Under the pieces are notes generated by a model. It saw nothing but the letters and a program-made list of their open reading frames with translations. It did not search any database and had not been told where the DNA came from. Positions 13,680 to 50,112 of a stretch of DNA of 64,000 nucleotides are shown piece after piece; within the stretch, counting starts at the first letter, position 1; every line of letters starts with the position of its first letter. Both the position numbers and the translations under genes were made by a program. Source of the DNA: an uncultured Verrucomicrobiae bacterium (GTDB taxonomy: Bacteria; Verrucomicrobiota; Verrucomicrobiia; Limisphaerales; UBA11358). The stretch covers positions 83,498 to 147,497 of the forward strand of contig CAVTWB010000011.1 in the NCBI GenBank assembly GCA_963738245.1. Reading direction: 5' to 3'.

Positions 13680-14190
13680 CCAAGGACTCCAGCTTTAATA
13701 ACCGGGCTTCACTGCTCCGTGACGGTGCCTTGCCGATAATTTCCCAAGCCCTCCAGCCAGTTGGCGCGATCTCCCAGACAATTGCCGGAACCGTTCGGGA
13801 AACTCTTTTAGCCGTCCCGGCAACTTGTTTTACGGCTCCGAGAACTTATTAAGCGGCTCCACCAACTTTTCAGACCATTCCAAGAACTTTTCAAGCCTTC
13901 CAAAAAGTTTTTTGGAAGGCTCCAAGAACTTTTTGAACCGTCTGAGGAACTTTTTGAATGCTTCCAGCAACTTCTTGAGAGGCTTCGGCAACTTTTTGGA
14001 AGTCTCCGGCAACTGCTGGAAGGGTTCCAGCAACTTTTTGAAGGCCTCCAAGAACTTCTTGAGCCTTCCGAAGAACTCTTTAGAAGTCTCCGGCAACTTC
14101 TTGAGAGGCTCCAAGAACTTATTTAGCGGCTTAAAAAGTTCCCGAAAAGGCTTAAAACGCCTAAAAATACCCTAAAACAGATAAAAACGG
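13680..14190. repeat. array of about 24 contiguous degenerate 21-bp units (consensus GGCTCCAAGAACTTYTTGAAG)
   Basis: Units were phased by hand, e.g. 13918-13938 GGCTCCAAGAACTTTTTGAAC, 13960-13980 GCTTCCAGCAACTTCTTGAGA and 14044-14064 GCCTCCAAGAACTTCTTGAGC. Track ORFs 13825..14175(+) and 13830..14114(-) are both open purely because of the repeat. Confidence 0.85.
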
Positions 14191-39796: not shown

Positions 39797-40237
39797 ATGA
39801 AGCCAAAGAAGACACCCGGCATCAGCCGGATTGACCAGCCGTCGCACCGCACGCACGGATTTTTTCTGCGGGCGGCCCGCCTGGGGCAGATCTATTCCGG
39901 TTTTTATTCCGACAAAAAATACGGCGGCCGGGCGCAGGCATTGGCGGCGGCAGTGGAGCATCGCGGCAAGCTGCTAAGAATCCTGGGATTGCCCGCCCAG
40001 AAATCGCGCCGCTATTGGGCGGAACTGCCACGGCGCAAGGGCCGGTCAGGCATCGTCGGGGTGCAGCGTGTGATTGACCGGCATGGCAGGTCGTGGCGGA
40101 AATACTGGCGGGCCACGTGGAGCCCGGAGAAGGGCGTGGTGCGGAAGAAACAATTTTCCATCCGCATTCACGGCGAGGAAAAGGCCCGGGAACTGGCCAT
40201 CCGTGCCCGGCGCGCCGGCGTGCGCAGCATGAAATGA
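39797..40237 (+). CDS. AP2-domain DNA-binding protein (two AP2-like units)
   Basis: GISRIDQPSHRTHGFFLRAAR...GGRAQALAAAVEHR and GIVGVQRVIDRHGRSWRKYWRATW...GEEKARELAIRARRAG. Confidence 0.65.
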   Translation: MKPKKTPGISRIDQPSHRTHGFFLRAARLGQIYSGFYSDKKYGGRAQALAAAVEHRGKLLRILGLPAQKSRRYWAELPRRKGRSGIVGVQRVIDRHGRSWRKYWRATWSPEKGVVRKKQFSIRIHGEEKARELAIRARRAGVRSMK

Positions 40238-40367
40238 AGGCCACCAACCAGCGGAGCAGCGCGGCCTGCACTCACCATTGAACGGCTCGCTCCGCACCAA
40301 ATCGAAGCAAGCCCGGTTGTCCGCCAGCGCCAGTTTCGCCTGCCGGATCGCTTCACGATAACCCTTA

Positions 40368-41349
40368 ATGACATTGCCCATCGAATTTCATATCCGCCAC
40401 CTGGCTCAACGCCACGCGGCGATCCGCCGGGCGGTCACGCCCCTGCCGGGCAGCCGGCCGCGCAATCATTTCAAGCCGCTCAATATTCCCGGCGGCTGCG
40501 ACGGCCTGACCCTGCTGGCGGCGCTCGGTCGCATGGTCGCGAATATGCCGGAGTCCGCGTGGCAGGCGGAGTTTGCCCGGGGCCGGGTCGTGAACCGGGA
40601 ACAGGAACCGGTGGCGGCCACGCAGATCGTCCGCGCCGGGCAGCGCTACCAGCATCTGTTCCCGGACGTGACCGAGCCGGAGGTGAACGGCGCCGTGGAA
40701 ATTTTGCACGAGGATGAGGCGCTGATCGTGGTGAACAAGCCCGCCCCGCTGCCGATGCACGCCGGCGGCAGGTTTTATCTCAACACGCTCCGGCACATCC
40801 TGAACGCGGCCTATCATCCGCAGAAGCCGCAGCCGGCACACCGGCTGGACGCCAACACGACCGGCGTGGTGCTGGTGGCGCGCACGCGGCCTTTTGCCGC
40901 CAATCTGCAATCGCAATTCGCGCAGGCGGCGGGTGGAGAAAATTTATCTGGTCCGCGTGCCGGGCCGGTTGCCCGGGGATGAATTTTATTGCGACGCGCC
41001 CATCAGCGCCGCTTTCGGCGAACGGTGTTCGCGCACGGTGGATTTGGAAAACGGCCTGGCGGCGCGCACGGAATTTCGCCTGCTCCGGCGTCTGGCCGAC
41101 GGCACGAACCTGCTCGAAGCGCGGCCGTTGACCGGACGCACCAACCAGATCCGCGTGCATCTCTGGCATCTGGGGTTTCCGGTGTGCGGCGATGCGATTT
41201 ATCTGCCCGGCGGGAAACTTGGCCACACGCAGACGCTGGCGGTGGGCGATGCGCCGCTCTGCCTCCACGCGGCGCGGTCGAAATTTCTGCATCCGTCGAG
41301 CGGGGAGCCGGTGGAGTTCAACGCCCCCCTGCCCGCCTGGGCAAATTAG
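40368..41349 (+). pseudogene. RluA-family pseudouridine synthase, one frameshift
   Basis: 40368..40982 (..VVNKPAPLPMHAGGRF..HRLDANTTGVVLVART) and 40894..41349 (..YLVRV..LLEARPLTGRTNQIRVHL) in different frames. The switch lies near 40925. Confidence 0.8.
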
Positions 41350-41409
41350 ATTTACGATTGCCGGTCTGCGCGCCACCATGGACGAAGTTTTCAAAGGCAT
41401 CATTGTGAC

Positions 41410-41958
41410 ATGAACAAAAAGAAGGAATTTCCGCTGGCGCAAGTTTATGGCCTGCTTGAACCCGGGCCGGTGGTGCTGTTGAGCACCGCCCGCGCCGGCC
41501 GGTTCGACGTGATGCCGATGTCGTGGCACACGATGATGGAGTTTGTGCCGCCGCTGGTGGGTTGCGTGGTCAGCAGCGCGAACCATTCGTTCGAGGTTTT
41601 GCGCAAGACCGGCGAGTGCGTGATCAACATCCCCACGGCGGATCTGGCCAAAACGGTGGTGGCCTGCGGCAACGCCTCGGGCCGGTCGGTGGACAAGTTC
41701 AAAACCTTCGGCCTCACGCCGGTCGCCGGCACGGTGGTCAAGGCGCCGCTCATCGCCGAGTGTTATGCCAGCCTGGAATGCACGGTGGCGGACCGGAAGC
41801 TGGTGCTGAAATACAATTTCTTCGTGCTGGAAGTGGTCAAGGCGTGGATGGATCCCGGCCGGAAGCGCCCGGAGACGATTCATCATCAGGGCGAAGGCTT
41901 GTTTTTCGTGCCGGGCCGGAAAATCAGCCTGCCCTCGCCAAAAACCTTCTTTTTTTGA
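41410..41958 (+). CDS. flavin reductase-like FMN-binding protein
   Basis: ORF 41410..41958; LLEPGPVVLLSTARAGRFDVMPMSWHTM split-barrel signature. Confidence 0.85.
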   Translation: MNKKKEFPLAQVYGLLEPGPVVLLSTARAGRFDVMPMSWHTMMEFVPPLVGCVVSSANHSFEVLRKTGECVINIPTADLAKTVVACGNASGRSVDKFKTFGLTPVAGTVVKAPLIAECYASLECTVADRKLVLKYNFFVLEVVKAWMDPGRKRPETIHHQGEGLFFVPGRKISLPSPKTFFF

Positions 41959-42187
41959 ACCGGGTTTCGGGCTGCTTCAATCTGACGGTCACCAGTTAAG
42001 CGGGACAAATGAAATACCACCCACTTGGGGGGCTGGACGAACCGGATCTCTGTGATAGTGTAACAAGATTCACTATGCACGTCGCCCAGGTCATCAAAAG
42101 TCGCATGTGATTAATAAACCAAAAAAAAACCCGAACTGACGAATGCCTGACTCAACCTCGTGTCGTCATATTAACAAAAACAAATAA

Positions 42188-44275
42188 ATGAAATTATCTA
42201 CCTTGGACATTCCGTGTCTTTCATGGCTGGCAGGCGGTAAAAAATCTTTGGCCCTGTTGTCTGCCGCCGTCGTTTCTGTCATCGGCCCCATCACGGCCCA
42301 GGCGACGCTGATCGCCTACGAGCCGTTTAATTATTCCGGCTCGCAGATTAACAACGGCACTCCTGTGCCTTCCGGCACGCCCACCCAGACCACGGGCGGC
42401 GGCTGGGTGGCCGGCAACTGGTCTTGTGCGCCCGCTCCCGGCGGTGCCCTGGCTTGGAACTCCGCCGGGCTGACCTACCCTGCTCTGCCGACGGCCAACG
42501 GCTCCATTTCCACCCTCGGTGCCAATTATTTGTATGAAAAGATAGCCAGCGCGCCCACTTCGGGCAGCGTCTGGGTGAGCTTTCTTTTCCAGCAGAATGG
42601 CGACAACGGCGGAACCAGGAACGGCATCATTTTGGAAAACAGCAGCGGCACGGGCGTAATGTTTGCCTACCATCAATACAGCGGCTCCCAAGGTTATCCC
42701 TGCCTGATGGCGATGAGCGGAACGATCTCGGTTGGCACGGAACTGGGAGACAGTTCGGCGCTTCAGACCTATGCCAGCGCGAATCTCTACGTGCTTCAAT
42801 TTACCTATTCCGGCGGGGTGGTCACCAGCATCTCGGTCTATTCCAATCCGACGGCCGGGCAGAGCACGGTGCCGGCGCCCGACTTCACGATCACCTCGGG
42901 CTTGGGCAGCATCGGACAACTCGTTAATTTCGGTTTGGCGAACCCGGCCCCCAACCAGCCTATAACGGTTGATGAATTCCGTGTCGGCACCACCTTCGGC
43001 GATGTCGTGGGTGCGGCGGCCACGGCTCCCACGGTTCCAACCACCCTCACGCTTTCAGTCGCCTCGGGCAAGGAAATCAGTTGGACGGCCAATAATACCG
43101 ACAGTTATCAGCCCCAAAGTTCCACCGACGGCATCACTTGGAACAATCTGGGCGGCGTTTTGGTCGGCAACGCGGTGACCTCGGTCTATGACCCCGCGCC
43201 GGTCGCCTTCTATCAGGTTCTGGATTACACCGTGGGCGGGCCTAGCACGAATCAAATCATCAACGGCAGCTTTGAAATCCCCGACCTCACCGAGAATAGC
43301 GGCGCGTTCGACTGGGTTTCCTCCCCGAATGACACCTACGACAGCGTCTGGGTGACCAACAGTTATGGCTCCATCCTGCCGCATTCCGGCACGAACCTTC
43401 TTTACATGGAAGGAACCACCGCCGCCTCGACCCCCACACCGCCAAACACTTTTGCCTATCAAAATCAGATTCCCGTGACTCCCGGGCTGCCCTACACGGT
43501 GAGTTTTTATGCCGCCAACCCGGTTAAAATTAGTGGAGCCAACCCGCAGTATCTTATCCAGTTTTATGACGGGATGGGCAACTTTATCTCCCAAACAGCG
43601 CCCAGCTTCATGTCCGCCGGAAATTCCTGGACGCTGTTCAGCACCACCGTCACTGCTCCTGTGAACGCCGCCCAGATGGCTGTCAATTTCATCCAGGCCG
43701 TTGGTGCCGGTGCCAGTTCGGATTGGGTTACTTTGATTGATGACGTGTCCATTACCTACCCGACCACCGGCCCGACCAATGTGCTGGCCGCCACGGTTCA
43801 AGCGGGTGCAATCTTCACGGCGACGATTCTGACCAACGGAGTCACGGCCACCGCCGCAACCGGGAATGTCGAGTTCCTGACCAACAGCGTGGATCAGAGC
43901 ACCGGGGCGGTCGGGAGCGGCACCGCCAACAGCACGCCCGCCGTCGTGCCCCCGTCCTACACCGTCACCGCCATCTACTCCGGCGACGGCACCTATCTCG
44001 GCAGCACGAACACCCTGGTGGTGGGCGGCAGCAACTTCGGACCCGGCAAAGGCTCCGTGAGCTTGTCCGGTGGCAATTCCACCGTGGTCATGTCGGGCGT
44101 ATCGGGCAACCAATACGCGTTGGAGCGCGCAACCAATGTCACCTTCACCGCCGGCATTTCAAACTTCCCGACGGCCATTGCCCCGGCCAGTGGCAATGTA
44201 ACCAACGTGGACAACTTCAGCGATCTGGGCGGGGCGCCCAAGGCGGCATTCTACCGGCTGAAATACATCCCATAG
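42188..44275 (+). CDS. large secreted surface protein (CBM-like and Ig-like segments)
   Basis: Signal peptide ..VIGPITAQA, an INGSFE.. jelly-roll-like segment, and [24 protein letters not shown], which resembles a bacterial Ig-like domain. Confidence 0.75.
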
Positions 44276-44357
44276 TAAAACTGGTTTGCGAGTCGAACGA
44301 AATATCAGCCAAAGGACGGGCCTGCCGAAACGGCAGGCCCGTCGGGTGACCGCCAAC

Positions 44358-45119
44358 ATGCAAACAGAAACGAAAACAAAAACCGGGTTTACCCTGATTG
44401 AACTGCTGGTGGTCATTGCCATCATCGCGATCCTGGCCGCCATGCTGCTGCCCGCGCTGGCCAAGGCCAAAACCAGGGCCAAGGCGATTGCCTGCAACAA
44501 CAACAACCGTCAAATCGGCCTGGCGATGATGATGTATACCGGCGACTACGCCGACTACCTGCCGCCGTTGAATGACAAGAATTTTAACACCCACTCCACC
44601 AACTGGTATTTCAGGATCATCGACAGCGGCAAATACATCACCAGCAGTTCGACCTCGAACAACGTCTGGCGCTGCCCGGTGGTGATGAATACGGACATTG
44701 ATCCCGCCACGGTGACATACTATGACTCCCCCTGCGAAGGCTATGGTCCGCTGGAAGACACCGGCAACCCCGCCAATGGAGTCATCCGCTACTACCTGGA
44801 TCTCAATGGCAACCCTGAAGGCAGCCGCAAATTAAGTTCCATCCACCGGCCCAGCCAGATCTGGTTGAACGGCGATGTGGGGCGGCCCAAAGCCAATGGC
44901 AACATCAACCAACTGCCACCGAGCGGCTACGTCACGGACATCACCGTCATCAAGCCGGTCATCGGTTCGGGCTGGACGACGGTGCCGGTCAACAAACAGG
45001 CCGCGTGCCGGCACAACAGCATGGCCGTCTTTGCGCTTTGCGACGGGCATGTCGAAAGCTGGAAATGGTTGGATTTGAGCACCGACCTCAACGACGTTTT
45101 TGCCCTCAACTCATTTTAA
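44358..45119 (+). CDS. prepilin-type N-terminal methylation domain protein (DUF1559-like, C-terminal DGHV)
   Basis: From ATG 44358: [38 protein letters not shown] ... [13 protein letters not shown]. Confidence 0.85.
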
Positions 45120-45377
45120 GGCGTCGTTGCATTGCCAGATCCAAAGAAATCAGCCGGAACGATTTCTCATTCCGGCTGGCGGGCAATAATGCCTGGCTTC
45201 AAAGCTTCACTTGGCCATGATGCTGACGGTATGCAAGATATGCGCCTGCCCGCCGTCGCCATTGCGGGCCGGCGTCAAAAACCCATTCATCCCCGCCCAA
45301 CCGCCCTTCACCCCGCTACGGGCCGGCGCGTGGCCGGGTTGACCGGTCTTTGCTGATTTCCCTTGTTTTTGATGGTT

Positions 45378-45750
45378 TTTACTCCAGATTTGGTCGGTAA
45401 GCCATATTGACCGGCCGGTAAGCCATATTGACCGGTCTCTTTTCTCTATGGATTAACCGTCAAGCCATATTGACCGGTCAGCGAGCTATATTGACTGGTC
45501 TCCGGTCCTGTTTGATTGGCCGTTAAGCCATATTGACCGCCGGCACCTCCATATTGACCCGTCGTTAAGCCTTATTGCCCGGCCGCCATTCTTTATAGAC
45601 TGGTTGCTGGTCTTTATTGATGGGCCGCCAAGCCATATTGTCCGGTCGTCAAGCTCTATTGACCGGGGACCGCTCTCTATTGACCGGTGGCAGATCAATC
45701 TGGCTTGACGACGATTTTAACTGTCCCGGCGGCCATTTTAACCGGTCCGC
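45378..45750. repeat. array of about 16 contiguous degenerate 21-bp units (consensus GTCAAGCCATATTGACCGGTC)
   Basis: The AAGCCATATTGACCGG core starts at 45399, 45420, 45462, 45483, 45525, 45546, 45567, 45588, 45609, 45630, 45651 and 45672. Every spacing is a multiple of 21, and degenerate copies fill 45441 and 45504. Confidence 0.85.
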
Positions 45751-46205
45751 AACCGGTCTGGTGGGTGGGATTGGGACAGTCGCCGGGAGGTTGTCCGGGA
45801 CAAACCAGCGCTCATTTAAGAGCTGCCGCAATTATTTTCAACTTTTTTTTCATCCCGTCCGGGCCTCCCTTTCAGGAAACCACACTGCCGTGGAGTGCCA
45901 GCCGTAATTTACCCGGGCAAATCAGGCCGGGATAAACTGCCGGCGACCGCTCTTGGACTCACCCTCGAAATCATTCGGCCGGCTGACGCCCGCCGCCGGT
46001 TTGAATGCCGGGGAAGTCTGGCTTGAGTCATTTTGAACTCACCATTGGTTGTCCGGTCAGCGCCCGTTCCTGCCAGGCGCGCTTTTATTGGCGCCCGTGA
46101 TTTTTCCGGCGCCTGGCATGGGCAAGGCTAAGGGGAGGCTGCGATGTTGCGCGGCAAACAAAACGCCAGGCGGGCATCAGAATCCAGACGACCAAAATAA
46201 AACAT

Positions 46206-46832
46206 ATGAAAACTAAAAGAGCCGGCCTCAAGGTGCTGCGGAATTTTTACAAATATCCCGGCCATCAACTCGGGGTCTTTGGCAGCAACGTCGGGGTGAG
46301 CCTCGACGTCACGCTGTTCCTCAACCTGCCGTTTGACCCCAAGGCCGTCTCGGCCCTGGCGGCGGACCTGATCGTCAAACAGGGTGCCCTCCTCACCGGC
46401 GGCACGGTGGCCAAGGCGGCCCGGGACAAGGCCTTTGACGCCTTGACGGACGCGCTCAACGCCGACGCGAACATTGTGGAGAACGTCGTGGGCGCCAACA
46501 TGCAGATGCTCCTCGCCACCGGCTACCTGCCGGTGAACACCAACCACGCCTCGTCGCCCCTGGACGACACGGACATCGTGAGCTTTCTGAACAACGGCAC
46601 CACCCAGGCGCTCCTGCAGTTGCTGCCGGTGCGCAACGCCAAGTCGTATCAGTTGCAGTTGAGCACGGATGGCGGCAAGACGTGGGCGGAGGCGGGCATC
46701 TCCACGCGGGCCACCCGGATTGTGTTCCCCAACCTGACGCCGGGGGCGACGTATTTCGTGCGCGCGCGGGCCATCGGCGGCAGCACCGGCGCGAGCGCAT
46801 GGACCGCCCCCCGTTCCATCATGTCCACGTGA
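46206..46832 (+). CDS. hypothetical protein with C-terminal Fn3-like domain
   Basis: ORF 46206..46832; YQLQLSTDGGKTWAEAG..FPNLTPGATYFVRARAIG. The antisense 46128..46880 ORF is an Arg/Gly-rich artefact. Confidence 0.65.
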   Translation: MKTKRAGLKVLRNFYKYPGHQLGVFGSNVGVSLDVTLFLNLPFDPKAVSALAADLIVKQGALLTGGTVAKAARDKAFDALTDALNADANIVENVVGANMQMLLATGYLPVNTNHASSPLDDTDIVSFLNNGTTQALLQLLPVRNAKSYQLQLSTDGGKTWAEAGISTRATRIVFPNLTPGATYFVRARAIGGSTGASAWTAPRSIMST

Positions 46833-47146
46833 GCGGTGGATATTCACAAGTTGTAGCGTCGAGCCTGCGGCTCGATCCATCAGCGCGCAGCGCCGACACT
46901 ACACCTTTTGATTTCAAAAACAAATTTGCCCGGACCTGACCGGGCAGACGGGCGGCGGGCAGCTTCTGGATTCATTGCCCCCGCCCGCAATTGTTTTAGC
47001 CGTGGATGAAGGCCGGCGCTGTCCGGCGTTCGAGGTCCGCCGTTCTCCTCGCCCGCTCCGTTTCTTGGAATGGAAATCAGCCCCTCCCGCAAACGTGTGG
47101 TTTTTGCCGGTTCCATATTCATGAGGAAAATCCTTATAAACGATTA

Positions 47147-47175
47147 TTGACAAATCAGAAAGCGTAAAATATCAT
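47147..47175 (+). promoter_or_regulatory. near-consensus sigma70 promoter TTGACA-N17-TATCAT facing the cassette array
   Basis: TTGACA at 47147-47152 and TATCAT at 47170-47175. A GTTAGGC core follows at 47223-47229. Confidence 0.45.
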
Positions 47176-47250
47176 GCCCTAAAGCTGAATGTGATTAACC
47201 GCAAAATCAAATATAATGAATAGTTAGGCAGCATTACACACCACACATAT

Positions 47251-47493
47251 ATGAAAAACACACTGATGATAGTTCTATGCAGCGCAGCAATACTTGCGTC
47301 AGGTTGCGCCACATCACATTCCCACTACACAGCTTGGGATTACAAGGTCGTTGATGGATATGTTCCTTCGGACCTCGAAAAAGAGTTGAAGCAGTTGGGC
47401 AGCGACGGATGGGTTGTTGTTTCAGCCACATCACCGAAACCGTTTGGAGACAATACGCCAGCGATTATTGTGATTCTAAAGCGGCAAAAATAG
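47251..47493 (+). CDS. cassette ORF 1: small lipoprotein (DUF4177-like)
   Basis: MKNTLMIVLCSAAILASGC lipobox; WDYKVV...LGSDGWVVVS. Confidence 0.65.
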   Translation: MKNTLMIVLCSAAILASGCATSHSHYTAWDYKVVDGYVPSDLEKELKQLGSDGWVVVSATSPKPFGDNTPAIIVILKRQK

Positions 47494-47511
47494 TAGAGAT
47501 TGAGATATGCT

Positions 47512-47664
47512 GCCTAACAAGTCGCCGGAGCCAACCGCCGTTGGCGCTGAAGCCTGCCCCGTTCTACGGGGTTCCGCTGTCGCGGGCGTAAAGCCCCGTG
47601 GGGCCACGCCCCTTTACGCGGTTCACGCCGCGAGGAAGGCATGGCTCAGCTTTCTACGTTAGGC
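47512..47664 (+). mobile_element. attC-like site 1 (GCCTAAC ... GTTAGGC)
   Basis: R''-like GCCTAAC 47512-47518, GGAGCCAAC, unrelated centre, ATGGCTCAGCTTTCTAC, R'-like GTTAGGC 47658-47664. Confidence 0.6.
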
Positions 47665-47677
47665 CACAGCAAGCGCC

Positions 47678-48007
47678 ATGAAGATATTCAGCATTACCTT
47701 GGTCAGCGCAGTTCTGTTTTGTCTGTTTATGGTTGTTGCGTTTCGCTTGTCTCGCCGTAACCCGCCAGACAAGCTCAAAGCATTGCAGAGTCTTTTGCCT
47801 GCTGATTGGAAGCTGGTGACATGGGGTTGGTGGGAGATGGGCTGGTTTGCCAAGTTTGAGTTTTGTGGCCGTAGATTTGACGTCGGTTCGCACCGAGACG
47901 ACATCGAGATTGTTGAGTTGGTTGGCACAGATAGGCGTGTCGTGGCGACAGAAGGCCAAAAATCACCAGGACAGATTTATGAGTTACTCGCAAAAGCTGT
48001 GGCCTAA
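47678..48007 (+). CDS. cassette ORF 2: membrane-anchored hypothetical protein
   Basis: ORF 47678..48007. Its TAA stop lies inside the GCCTAAC of the next site. Confidence 0.6.
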   Translation: MKIFSITLVSAVLFCLFMVVAFRLSRRNPPDKLKALQSLLPADWKLVTWGWWEMGWFAKFEFCGRRFDVGSHRDDIEIVELVGTDRRVVATEGQKSPGQIYELLAKAVA

Positions 48008-48231
48008 CACCGCGCGAGGCTGTGTGAAAAGTGGCGGAGCGAAATCCGGTAACGATCAAATTTTGGATATGGCGAACTTTGATGAAATGAGCAGGCGGCT
48101 GCGACGGTCGAAAACTGAGTTTTCACACAGCCTCTCGCCGGAGCCAACGGCGGCTGTTCCGCCTTTGGGAGTTTGAAACAAATTCACGCTTGCGGTTTTC
48201 CACGCCGTGGCTCAGCTTTGGATCGTTAGGC
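48002..48231 (+). mobile_element. attC-like site 2, interrupted by a 125-bp TIR element
   Basis: GCCTAAC 48002-48008, GGAGCCAAC 48140-48148, GTGGCTCAGCTTTGGATC, GTTAGGC 48225-48231. Confidence 0.55.
48010..48134. mobile_element. MITE-like insertion, copy 1 (17-19 bp terminal inverted repeats)
   Basis: Begins CCGCGCGAGGCTGTGTGAAAA and ends TTTTCACACAGCCTC. The 147-bp block 48002-48148 is identical to 48732-48878. Confidence 0.6.
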
Positions 48232-48254
48232 CGCTAAATAAAACCATATATTAT

Positions 48255-48728
48255 ATGAAATCACTCGTTTACCCACTAAGTTTAACATTGACTGTTCTTC
48301 TTCTATGCAGTTGTGCCTCCACAAGTTCTCATATTCTTATAGGATCCAGGCGCCCACCAATAAACCCGTCACTTGTGAAGCTCTATCTCCATCCACCAGC
48401 AAATTATGAGGAGGTGGCAGTTGTGTCAGCGGATAGCCGAAATAGTTATGCGGACAGCGCACAAGCGAAGATGGATGTAGCCATCACCAACTTAAAGGCG
48501 GAGGCAGCCGAACTCGGTGCAAACGGCATACTTTTGAGCAGCGCTAATGATCAATACGGTGGTTCTATCGGCAGCATTTCTGCCATTGGAGCTGGTATAG
48601 GCTCTGGTATTGGTAACAATGTGAGTGCTCCCACGTCGACGACAGCATTTTGGTCAGGGACATCCTTTTCTTATCCAATTTTTAATAAGTCAGCAGCTGG
48701 AATAGCGATTTATGTCAAAGAGAACTGA
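48255..48728 (+). CDS. cassette ORF 3: lipoprotein, unknown function
   Basis: From ATG 48255: MKSLVYPLSLTLTVLLLCSC lipobox. The earlier part of ORF 48207.. lies within attC-like site 2. Confidence 0.65.
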   Translation: MKSLVYPLSLTLTVLLLCSCASTSSHILIGSRRPPINPSLVKLYLHPPANYEEVAVVSADSRNSYADSAQAKMDVAITNLKAEAAELGANGILLSSANDQYGGSIGSISAIGAGIGSGIGNNVSAPTSTTAFWSGTSFSYPIFNKSAAGIAIYVKEN

Positions 48729-48731
48729 GAT

Positions 48732-48963
48732 GCCTAACACCGCGCGAGGCTGTGTGAAAAGTGGCGGAGCGAAATCCGGTAACGATCAAATTTTGGATAT
48801 GGCGAACTTTGATGAAATGAGCAGGCGGCTGCGACGGTCGAAAACTGAGTTTTCACACAGCCTCTCGCCGGAGCCAACCGGCAGCGGCGCGTCTGCGTCA
48901 ATCGGTAACGCCCGTGGCTGGCCGCGTCACTGGTTGCCGATGGTTCAGCTTTATTCGTTAGGC
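48732..48963 (+). mobile_element. attC-like site 3, interrupted by the same TIR element
   Basis: GCCTAAC 48732-48738, GGAGCCAAC 48870-48878, TGGTTCAGCTTTATTC, GTTAGGC 48957-48963. Confidence 0.55.
48740..48864. mobile_element. MITE-like insertion, copy 2
   Basis: Identical to 48010-48134. Confidence 0.6.
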
Positions 48964-49007
48964 GATTGAGCGCCTTGCCAGAACACTCCAACAGCAAAAA
49001 CTAACAA

Positions 49008-49655
49008 ATGACCAAACTCCGTGTAGAAAGCTTCACCATTTCGATTGATGGCTTCGGCGCAGGCCCGAATCAGAGCCTGGAGAACCCGCTTGGCGTCGGC
49101 GGACCCGCCCTTCATGGATGGGCGATGGCGACCCGCACCTTTCAGGAGAAAGTGCTGGGAAACAAAGGCGGAGAGGCCGGGATTGACGACGACTTTGCCC
49201 AGCGCGGCTTCCACAATGTGGGCGCGTGGATCATGGGCAGAAACATGTTCGGGCCGGTGCGCGGTGCCTGGCCGGATGAGAGCTGGCGAGGGTGGTGGGG
49301 TGAGAACCCGGTTTACCATGCGCAAGTTTTCGTGCTCACTAATCATCCTCGTGCGCCTCTCGTAATGGAGGGAGGCACGACTTTTCATTTCGTTACTGAC
49401 GGGATTCGCGTCGCACTTGAACGAGCGCGCGAAGCCGCCAACGGAAAGGATGTCCGCATCGGAGGCGGAGCGGCGACCATCAGGCAATACCTTCAGGAGC
49501 GATTGATCGATGAACTACATATCGCCATCTCACCAGTCTTGCTGGGCGCGGGTGAGCGGTTGTTCGACGGCATCAATCTCGTAGATTTGGGATACACATG
49601 CACCCAGCATGTCCCAACGCAGCGAGCAACTCACATCGTGCTAACCCGCACATGA
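49008..49655 (+). CDS. dihydrofolate reductase-family protein (RibD C-terminal domain type)
   Basis: MTKLRVESFTISIDGFGAGPNQ...GRNMFGPVRG...VRIGGGAATIRQYLQERLIDELHIAISPVLLGAGERLF. Confidence 0.85.
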   Translation: MTKLRVESFTISIDGFGAGPNQSLENPLGVGGPALHGWAMATRTFQEKVLGNKGGEAGIDDDFAQRGFHNVGAWIMGRNMFGPVRGAWPDESWRGWWGENPVYHAQVFVLTNHPRAPLVMEGGTTFHFVTDGIRVALERAREAANGKDVRIGGGAATIRQYLQERLIDELHIAISPVLLGAGERLFDGINLVDLGYTCTQHVPTQRATHIVLTRT

Positions 49656-49761
49656 ACTCAACGTCGCCTCTTGAGAAACTAGGCGTATAAGTTTATGGGG
49701 TGCAAAGGAGTTTGTAGCCGAGCGCGGCGGACTGATTATTGACCTTCAGAGACGTGAGAGG

Positions 49762-50112
49762 TTGCAGCGATATTGGCAGCGAGCGTGTAGCAACTTTCGC
49801 TGGCATCGGCGGTTTCCTCAAGCCCCGATTTCCGAGATTCGTGAGTTTCTTGATTTGTTCGTTGATGCTTTTGCTTTTAACCGGAAGCGGCGCTGCTGTT
49901 TTTCAACGGATGACCGAATCATGGAGATATATCGGACGATTTATCCGACCAACGACCACGGGGTTGACAGCGTGGAGTTGGAGTTTTTGTGCAAGATGGT
50001 CGAGAAGCGTTACGGCCTTGATTTGGCCTCGTCGTGGCGCGAAGACATCACGCTTGGAGAGATTTATGAGCAGACACATACGCCTAATATGCGGACAGGC
50101 TGCAAGGGCTGA
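49762..50112 (+). CDS. small hypothetical protein
   Basis: ORF 49762..50112 (TTG start, uncertain). ..DSVELEFLCKMVEKRYGLDL faintly resembles a carrier-protein helix. Confidence 0.4.
   Translation: MQRYWQRACSNFRWHRRFPQAPISEIREFLDLFVDAFAFNRKRRCCFSTDDRIMEIYRTIYPTNDHGVDSVELEFLCKMVEKRYGLDLASSWREDITLGEIYEQTHTPNMRTGCKG

Follow-up and report, generated by a model that had tools for sequence, protein, structure and literature searches.

A 21-bp-phased element upstream of an fn3 gene

The window, a 64,000-nucleotide stretch of contig C11, belongs to a 3.44-Mb metagenome-assembled genome of a peat-soil Verrucomicrobium that is 84% complete and comprises 18 contigs, in which all gene calls are our own readings of open reading frames. 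Within the window, a discrete element of ~415 bp (45336–45755) consists of a T-rich leader, a series of tandem 21-bp units, and a degenerate tail, and is followed on the same strand by a predicted sigma-54 promoter and the gene for a 208-aa protein (Table 1). A distance of 360 bp separates the last unit of the array from the –24 element of this promoter, which places the units 360–715 bp upstream. In a Pfam scan, the neighbors of the array were a DUF1559 prepilin-like protein and the fn3 protein.

Table 1. Features of the array locus in window coordinates
Feature	Position	Strand	Remarks
87-bp hairpin-containing small repeat	45143–45229	.	Marks the left boundary of the triplicated segment in C11 and C14, but not in C9
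Left end of the element	45336–45398	+	Out-of-phase core copy TTGACCGGTC at 45339, then T-rich leader
T-rich leader, TTTGCTGATTTCCCTTGTTTTTGATGGTTTT...	45348–45398	+	Best conserved part; 75–90% identity between diverged copies
14 units in strict 21-bp phase	45399–45692	+	Consensus AAGCC-ATATTGACCGG-TCGnn; core C-Y-n-TAT-W-GAC-nn-GTC; non-coding
Tail of three degenerate units	45693–45755	+	GATCAATCTGGCTTGACGACG, then two ATTTTAAC(C)-type units
Intervening region, array to promoter	45756–46113	+	~85% conserved with ortholog L145 from about 45870; largely absent in L149
Sigma-54 type –24/–12 promoter, TGGCATGGGCAAGGCT	46114–46129	+	Sequence-predicted; identical in L145/L146
5' leader of the fn3 transcript	46130–46205	+	Conserved; GATGTTGCGCGGC...CCAGGCGGGCATC...GAATCCAGA
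208-aa protein gene	46206–46832	+	N-terminal four-helix domain, flexible linker, C-terminal fn3 domain
fn3 3' flank, right end of the triplicated segment	46833–47025	.	Hairpin at 46927–46946
Integron remnant	47065–47241	-	First ~19 codons of intI (47122 down to 47065; MNMEPAKTTRLREGLI...) and intI-upstream region
Integrase-less integron cassette array	47251–48882	+	Small ORFs between attC-type sites (GCCTAAC...GTTAGGC)

The 208-aa protein matched the fn3 family of Pfam weakly and in its C-terminal part, and searches of Pfam, NCBIfam, and PHROGs gave nothing specific beyond fn3. An AlphaFold2 model (54-sequence alignment, mean pLDDT 79.8) contained a short helix (residues 9–12), four main helices (19–105), a disordered linker (110–119), and an fn3 sandwich (124–206). 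The N-terminus of the protein is basic and conserved, and no signal peptide was apparent by inspection. We rejected the idea that this is a recognizable DNA-binding protein, as Foldseek searches of the PDB and BFVD matched only the fn3 half (to titin, NCAM, and phage tail proteins, for example) and a helix-turn-helix match in PHROGs was insignificant (E = 0.19).

Anatomy of the array

A preliminary description of this DNA had counted at least 14 units at 45399 + 21n with weaker trailing copies. Read in 21-bp rows, the array indeed contained 14 good units in strict register, the first at 45399, and three degenerate units that continue the register to 45755. Identity at lags of 21, 42, and 63 was 0.56–0.61, and the lag-21 value for the 14 good units (0.575) lies well above the best-lag values of 2000 shuffles, which averaged 0.32 (sd 0.013) and reached at most 0.375; TRF called the best part only (45395–45563). 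The information content of the unit sits in a contiguous core of 10–13 bp, C4, T7 A8 T9 T10 G11 A12 C13 (C14) G15 G16, in which C4 is invariant and T7, A8, T9, T10, G11, A12, C13, G15, and G16 are each present in 11–14 of the 14 units; positions 1–3, 5–6, and 17–21 vary. The inverted repeat GGTCAA-N6-TTGACC, which the preliminary description had placed in the best units, occurs nowhere in the array in that exact form. Instead, CGTCAA-N6-TTGACC occurs twice (45458 and 45647), and the unit has (G)ACCGGT(C), or TGAC-N2-GTCA, as its internal dyad.

The array is non-coding DNA, as had been proposed, with 4–10 stops in each of the six frames across 45399–45755. That it descends from a heptad-repeat coding region, with seven amino acids per unit, is scarcely credible. 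Twenty-one base pairs do equal seven codons, and the minus strand reads as ...RSIWL... heptads over an open stretch of 70 residues, but stops interrupt every frame, the conserved positions form a contiguous core with no 3-base period or third-base pattern, and the orthologous arrays of L145 and L149 (see below) keep core and phase with no open frame. The same stops and contiguous core argue against fragments of a repeat-protein gene family, a possibility raised at the outset.

The dyad GACCGGTC makes a small hairpin conceivable in each 21-nt module, and the array might be transcribed and act as RNA, for instance as a multi-site sponge or scaffold of such hairpins. A leader that is the best conserved part of the element could hold the promoter for such a transcript, and the lack of coding capacity would fit. 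We nevertheless regard this as improbable. Rfam gave no match at E ≤ 1 within 40000–50000, the leader contains no sigma-70-like promoter (the sole match was weak and on the minus strand, at 45741–45714), and a 21-bp phase free of indels is expected from the helical geometry of DNA, whereas independent RNA hairpins have no need of it.

Iterons (R6K, RK2, P1, F) and type II/III centromeres (parC of R1 and pSK41, tubC) are head-to-tail repeats with two-turn spacing that are coated by a dimeric or winged-helix protein. With 14–17 tandem direct repeats at exactly 21 bp, the window array resembles the R6K, RK2, and P1 iterons as well as parC and tubC, but a function as an iteron-type replication origin or partition site is very improbable and largely refuted by four observations. 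First, a Pfam scan of ten neighboring proteins revealed no Rep, ParA, ParM, TubZ, or ParB-type gene. Second, no DnaA box (TTATCCACA-like) lies in the element; the nearest single-mismatch copy is at 46475, and counts across the window are near chance. Third, there is no AT-rich unwinding region, as the GC content is 48–62% across the element (45300–45800). Finally, the array is chromosomal, multicopy, and promoter-associated, has many more units than the known systems, and shares its genome with four other copies of its own family and about 70 arrays of other sequence.

Conservation between copies

The 10-mer TATTGACCGG occurs 20 times in the genome, with 15 of these occurrences in three identically spaced blocks on C11 (the window), C14, and C9. 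Further copies of the array lie at C4:~144430–144850 and C3:~236230–236600, so that the family occupies five places on four contigs, and it is also present in two relatives, G135 (Limisphaerales bog MAG PKZR01000300, locus L062) and G172. Because members of the family come from independent ENA, JGI, and NCBI assemblies, an assembly artifact, the other explanation raised against the array in advance, can be dismissed. A scan of 596 Gb of genomes with the leader pattern, which proved too permissive for specific recovery, returned almost only chance matches in AT-rich genomes and one true match, L062.

Homology among the C11/C9/C14, C4, C3, G135, and G172 copies is confined to about 415 bp, corresponding to the window element. 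In pairwise comparisons with the window copy, identity was 75–90% in the leader, 70–79% at core positions, 48–62% at spacer positions, and 34–56% in DNA outside the element. The order of units is preserved between copies, such that TTTCTCTATGGATTAACCGTC, the degenerate third unit, has TTTCTTTATTGATTAACCGTT as its counterpart in C4, which indicates that similarity among units is maintained by selection on the core rather than by recent homogenization. Leader, core, phase, and a complement of 12–14 units are common to six copies from four assemblies; indels leave the phase unbroken in five of the six, and L149 has one 22-bp step. The degenerate tail is retained in the C4, G135/L062, G172, and L149 copies. 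Unit number is not fixed, as the G172 copy has 7–8 units.

Linkage to promoters and fn3 genes

The orthologous loci L145 and L146 (82% identity of the fn3 protein) and L149 (78%) share the T-rich leader and have 12–13 units of a TAT(T/A)GAC array upstream of the fn3 gene. L145/L146 have the same promoter sequence as the window and L149 has a similar one, and conservation extends to the 5' leader. The presence of a predicted sigma-54 promoter downstream of the array, both here and in these orthologs, is more readily explained by a cis element of the enhancer or operator type than by an iteron, a centromere, or a nucleoid-organizing site.

The fn3 family, which has hundreds of uncharacterized homologs in metagenomes, occupies 26–36 loci in this genome (tblastn, HMMER). 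TRF detected a period-21 array within about 700 bp upstream, on the strand of the gene, for 20 of 26 paralogs, and degenerate arrays could be seen by eye upstream of some others. Most paralogs also have a sigma-54 type –24/–12 sequence, TGGCA(C/T)-N5-(T/A)NGCT(T/A), 85–110 nt upstream of the ATG, and array-to-promoter distances range from about 10 to 390 bp. Relatives of the same genus carry period-21 arrays of other unit sequence upstream of their fn3 homologs. Among the paralogs, residues 19–64 are the most variable, and array type tracks protein subfamily. We set this covariation aside as evidence of recognition, as co-duplication of gene and array would yield the same pattern.

One paralog (C14:148060–148681), closest to that at C4:233415, appears frameshifted in its fn3 half and is likely a pseudogene; its upstream array and sigma-54 promoter are intact.

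A genome-wide class of 21-bp arrays

The preliminary description had proposed a recurring architecture from two arrays in one window, and a TRF census of the genome bore this out strongly. Period 21 accounted for 158 rows, with 53, 28, and 15 rows for periods 42, 63, and 84, compared with 30 for period 18 and 8 each for periods 20 and 24. Merging of rows gave 144 arrays, of which 72 were at least 100 bp long with a median of about 10 units. What these arrays share is the two-turn period and not a motif, as their consensus units fell into about 53 unrelated sequence families. Internal dyads with arms of at least 5 bp were present in 25 of the 72 arrays, compared with about 8 expected (p = 4e-7). 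Of the functions offered in the preliminary description, binding sites for a dimeric protein are therefore the most plausible, given this enrichment and the conservation of core over spacer, whereas the iteron, partition, and nucleoid-organizing candidates are not supported, with neither rep/par genes nor DnaA boxes nor an unwinding region beside the array.

We found a strict, outward-facing sigma-54 site within 600 bp of 11 of the 72 large arrays, compared with 2% of random positions, indicating that the arrays are enriched at sigma-54 promoters and not restricted to them. At the strict pattern, this count also argues against a sigma-54 promoter as a universal partner of the arrays. DNA curvature, in the form of AT/GC phasing at 10.5 or 21 bp, was considered as a common property of the arrays and was not found.

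Periods 7 (195 rows), 12 (124 rows), and 14/15 were also unusually frequent in the TRF output. The second array of the window (13830–14175; unit about TCCAAGAACTTTTTGAAGGC) is flanked by genes for a lipoprotein hydrolase and a small membrane protein, with no fn3 gene or sigma-54 site adjacent; it is open on both strands, and its minus strand reads as KKFLEAF-type heptads over 94 residues.

Array-bearing inserts at metF and the efflux operon

Two copies of the window family lie upstream of unrelated genes, one (C4) before a gene for a 107-aa YHS/TRASH-like protein and an RND efflux operon for metal efflux, and the other (C3) before metF. Both metF and the YHS/RND operon keep their own promoter regions, in which no sigma-54 site was seen. 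In G135, the element has a divergent 107-aa gene on one side and, on the other, an aminotransferase gene that converges on it with its 3' end, and it precedes no co-oriented gene.

We compared the metF site with that of close relatives, including L154 (G172), L155, L157, and L159. No array is present upstream of metF in 12 of 13 close relatives, and the empty site consists of the terminator hairpin of a porin-like gene followed within 74 bp by the start of metF. In our genome, an array-bearing insert of ~740 bp occupies this site (C3:236084–236897), bounded by a direct duplication of 11–13 bp (left TTTTTATTTTCC, right TTTTTATTTCCCC); outside its array, the insert matches nothing else in the genome. 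At the same point, G172 carries an unrelated insert of ~620 bp with a different 21-bp array (unit ACCTTTGCCAGTCTGCGACGA) and the same flanking duplication. These inserts suggest that insertion occurs with a staggered duplication of the target or that the point is a recombination hotspot. At the YHS gene, the upstream DNA of G172 contains the window array family and, between array and gene, an additional lipoprotein gene; G161 has another unrelated array there, and the promoter-like region of the YHS gene is conserved in relatives that have no array. Together, these comparisons show repeated gain of array-bearing DNA at the same intergenic points. Such gain supports a partly selfish or cassette-like behavior, which is compatible with a regulatory role once an array is in place. 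A more speculative and rather unlikely possibility is that array-bearing segments make up a novel type of cassette, one that enters the DNA just after terminators and duplicates 11–13 bp of its target.

It is possible, but in our judgment unlikely, that the element is mainly a dispersed and perhaps mobile non-coding repeat, of the form leader-(unit)n-tail, with little or no regulatory role, in which case its linkage to fn3 genes would reflect the descent of duplicated segments. The restriction of homology to about 415 bp among five copies on four contigs and those in relatives, the unrelated genes downstream, the lack of any co-oriented gene in G135, the empty metF site, the paired inserts with their shared duplication, and a unit number that ranges from 7 to 14 all fit this proposal. 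However, it does not account for a core that is kept over its spacers without homogenization or for the conserved order of array, promoter, and gene in orthologs, and the unique sequence in the metF insert indicates that something other than the 415-bp element alone was mobilized. BOX elements of Streptococcus pneumoniae and MIRU elements of mycobacteria likewise combine a leader, tandem units, and a tail, are dispersed between genes, and vary in unit number, but they reach tens to hundreds of copies per family, compared with five here and a set of 72 arrays in about 53 families that share one period. The window array also differs from BOX and MIRU in its core-specific conservation and its conserved linkage to one gene family and promoter. 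Dispersal as a repeat is not exclusive of the regulatory explanation to which we now turn.

A putative regulatory lattice

A bacterial promoter is typically under the control of a single operator or enhancer site or of a few. On the sequence evidence above, we lean toward the explanation that the window array is a phased lattice of putative sites for a dimeric DNA-binding protein and serves as an enhancer or operator of a sigma-54-dependent gene. About 14 sites exactly two helical turns apart would all lie on the same face of the DNA, and the ~415-bp element would be the far-upstream part of a module that continues with a spacer of ~360 bp, the sigma-54 promoter, the 5' leader, and the fn3 gene. 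A sequence-specific and probably dimeric protein would recognize the TAT(T/A)GAC-N2-GTC core and coat the array cooperatively, forming a long, one-sided nucleoprotein filament that could control the enhancer-dependent promoter downstream. This filament might concentrate or assemble an AAA+ activator, in the manner of an enhancer, or might silence or insulate the promoter, in the manner of an operator. Copies of the element can also arise at other intergenic sites, such as those at metF and the metal-efflux operon. The periodicity, the lack of coding capacity, the conservation of core over spacer, the linkage to promoter and fn3 gene in orthologs, and the genome-wide class are observed; protein binding itself, the identity of the binder, and the sign of its effect are what we infer in this scheme.

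The closest known parallels are sigma-54 UAS elements, such as those for NtrC at glnAp2 and NorR at norV, which similarly place dyad-like sites on one helix face upstream of a –24/–12 promoter. Our genome encodes one rpoN and nine sigma-54 activators, some of the NtrC type, and an activator operon lies beside the C14 copy of the module, which is the ancestral one (see below). This operon (C14:260392–265071) is divergent from the module and encodes a phosphorelay, with a 714-aa hybrid histidine kinase that is CHASE3-like, a 388-aa hybrid of response regulator and kinase, and an NtrC-type activator of about 400 aa (C14:260392–261591) with AAA+ and Fis-type HTH domains. It is a candidate for the cognate regulator; its adjacency to the module is not kept in L145/L146. 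LytTR sites (AgrA, ComE, AlgR), in which 9-bp direct repeats separated by 12-bp spacers also give a 21-bp spacing upstream of promoters, differ from the window array in having two or three repeats rather than 14 and an unrelated core motif; one partial LytTR domain (in an 84-aa frame) was the only one in the genome.

Several points count against the lattice as an enhancer or operator of this kind. Classical sigma-54 enhancers have two or three sites at about 80–150 bp upstream, and 14 sites beginning 360 bp from the –24 element exceed both the usual number and the usual distance. In addition, the window family also lies before genes that have no sigma-54 promoter, and the arrays of fn3 paralogs are unrelated in sequence. 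The small share of arrays with a strict sigma-54 site (11 of 72), the setting of the G135 copy, and the variable unit number also count against it. Specificity is the main problem, as about 53 unrelated families and nine sigma-54 activators make a dedicated activator for each array implausible. The ways out that remain are other regulators, a protein of the module itself, or that many arrays are low-function, spreading repeats.

A more speculative and quite unlikely solution is that the modules specify themselves, with each small fn3 protein recognizing a private 21-bp lattice before its own gene and a few satellites, such as those at metF and the efflux operon. Recognition would involve the variable N-terminal helical domain and the conserved basic N-terminal arm, yielding dozens of orthogonal, filament-forming protein–DNA pairs that gate enhancer-dependent promoters. 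Self-specification would explain how about 53 array sequences coexist with nine sigma-54 activators.

Under the regulatory-lattice explanation, a soil lineage of Verrucomicrobia (Limisphaerales) would place lattices of 10–17 sites, at exact two-turn spacing and with sequences that differ from gene to gene, before a large family of enhancer-dependent genes. If a binding factor were found, the lattices would constitute a new regulatory architecture of long, one-sided nucleoprotein filaments, possibly with many orthogonal pairs, and would offer a handle on an uncharacterized family of fn3 proteins. That arrays are gained more than once at identical intergenic positions is also relevant to the acquisition of regulatory DNA. 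A full-text literature search of limited coverage returned nothing relevant to this class of arrays, which is weak evidence that the class is undescribed. New in this study are the leader–units–tail anatomy, the copies at genes other than fn3, the empty-site and target-duplication evidence, the count of families, and the link to integron integrases; the promoter, the association with paralogs, the integrase-less cassette array, and the non-coding nature of the array were derived independently here.

A triplicated segment at integrons

BLAST searches showed that the segment 45143–47025 of the window recurs at about 99.7% identity at C14:265197–267079 and, from 45230 onward, at C9:174203–175998. 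This 1.9-kb segment contains the array, a spacer of about 450 bp, and the 208-aa ORF, and every copy adjoins an integron; no terminal inverted repeats or target duplication were seen at its ends. The 87-bp repeat at its left edge includes a 12-pair hairpin (45151–45178) and is possibly a bidirectional, terminator-like small repeat. The repeat has a perfect 9-bp stem (CAGCCGGAA...TTCCGGCTG), and an extra copy lies at the 3' end of another fn3 paralog (C14:519427–519512).

In the window, the integrase gene is deleted apart from its first ~19 codons and the upstream region, and the remnant is 96% identical to another integron (C14:181822–181996). A near-consensus sigma-70 promoter (47147–47175) points toward the cassettes, whose attC-type sites lie at about 47512–47680, 48002–48151, and 48732–48882. 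The integron boundary motifs RYYYAAC ... GTTRRRY are absent from the 21-bp array, and the true attC sites, which start at ~47512, lie outside the element. Next to the segment in C9, and convergent with it, lies an intact tyrosine recombinase of 376 aa that has the integron-integrase-specific insertion (...KYPNAAREWGWQWLFPSA...) and ends in ...TTTQIYTHVMQRPG, and in C14 the integrase is split into two frames. Beyond the integrase, both loci contain arrays of small ORFs and attC-type sites. A fragmented, convergent integrase (Phage_integrase and Phage_int_SAM_4) also lies downstream of the fn3 gene in L145/L146, and the right flank of L146 matches C14:271609–272161. This match indicates that C14 is the ancestral locus and that those in C9 and the window arose secondarily and recently at other integrons; the module as a whole has evidently been copied from one integron to another.

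Four of the five integron-integrase loci in the genome have a module of array, sigma-54 site, and fn3 gene within about 250–500 bp of the 3' end of intI. Three of these loci are the copies of the 1.9-kb segment, which are about 99.7% identical beside integrases that are only about 60% identical. The fourth module (C14:183313–184225) belongs to a different fn3 subfamily and is in tandem orientation. An integron-adjacent module recurs in L145/L146, and the C10 integron has none. An insertion bounded by CGCGTAAAGCC-type repeats, which encodes a small protein of the GIY-YIG type (MFYVYILQSETDDGLYIGFT...), disrupts one integron integrase gene (C14:181939–183090) about 174 codons from its start, and the C-terminal remnant of intI (GLGVRSPLDG) follows the insertion.
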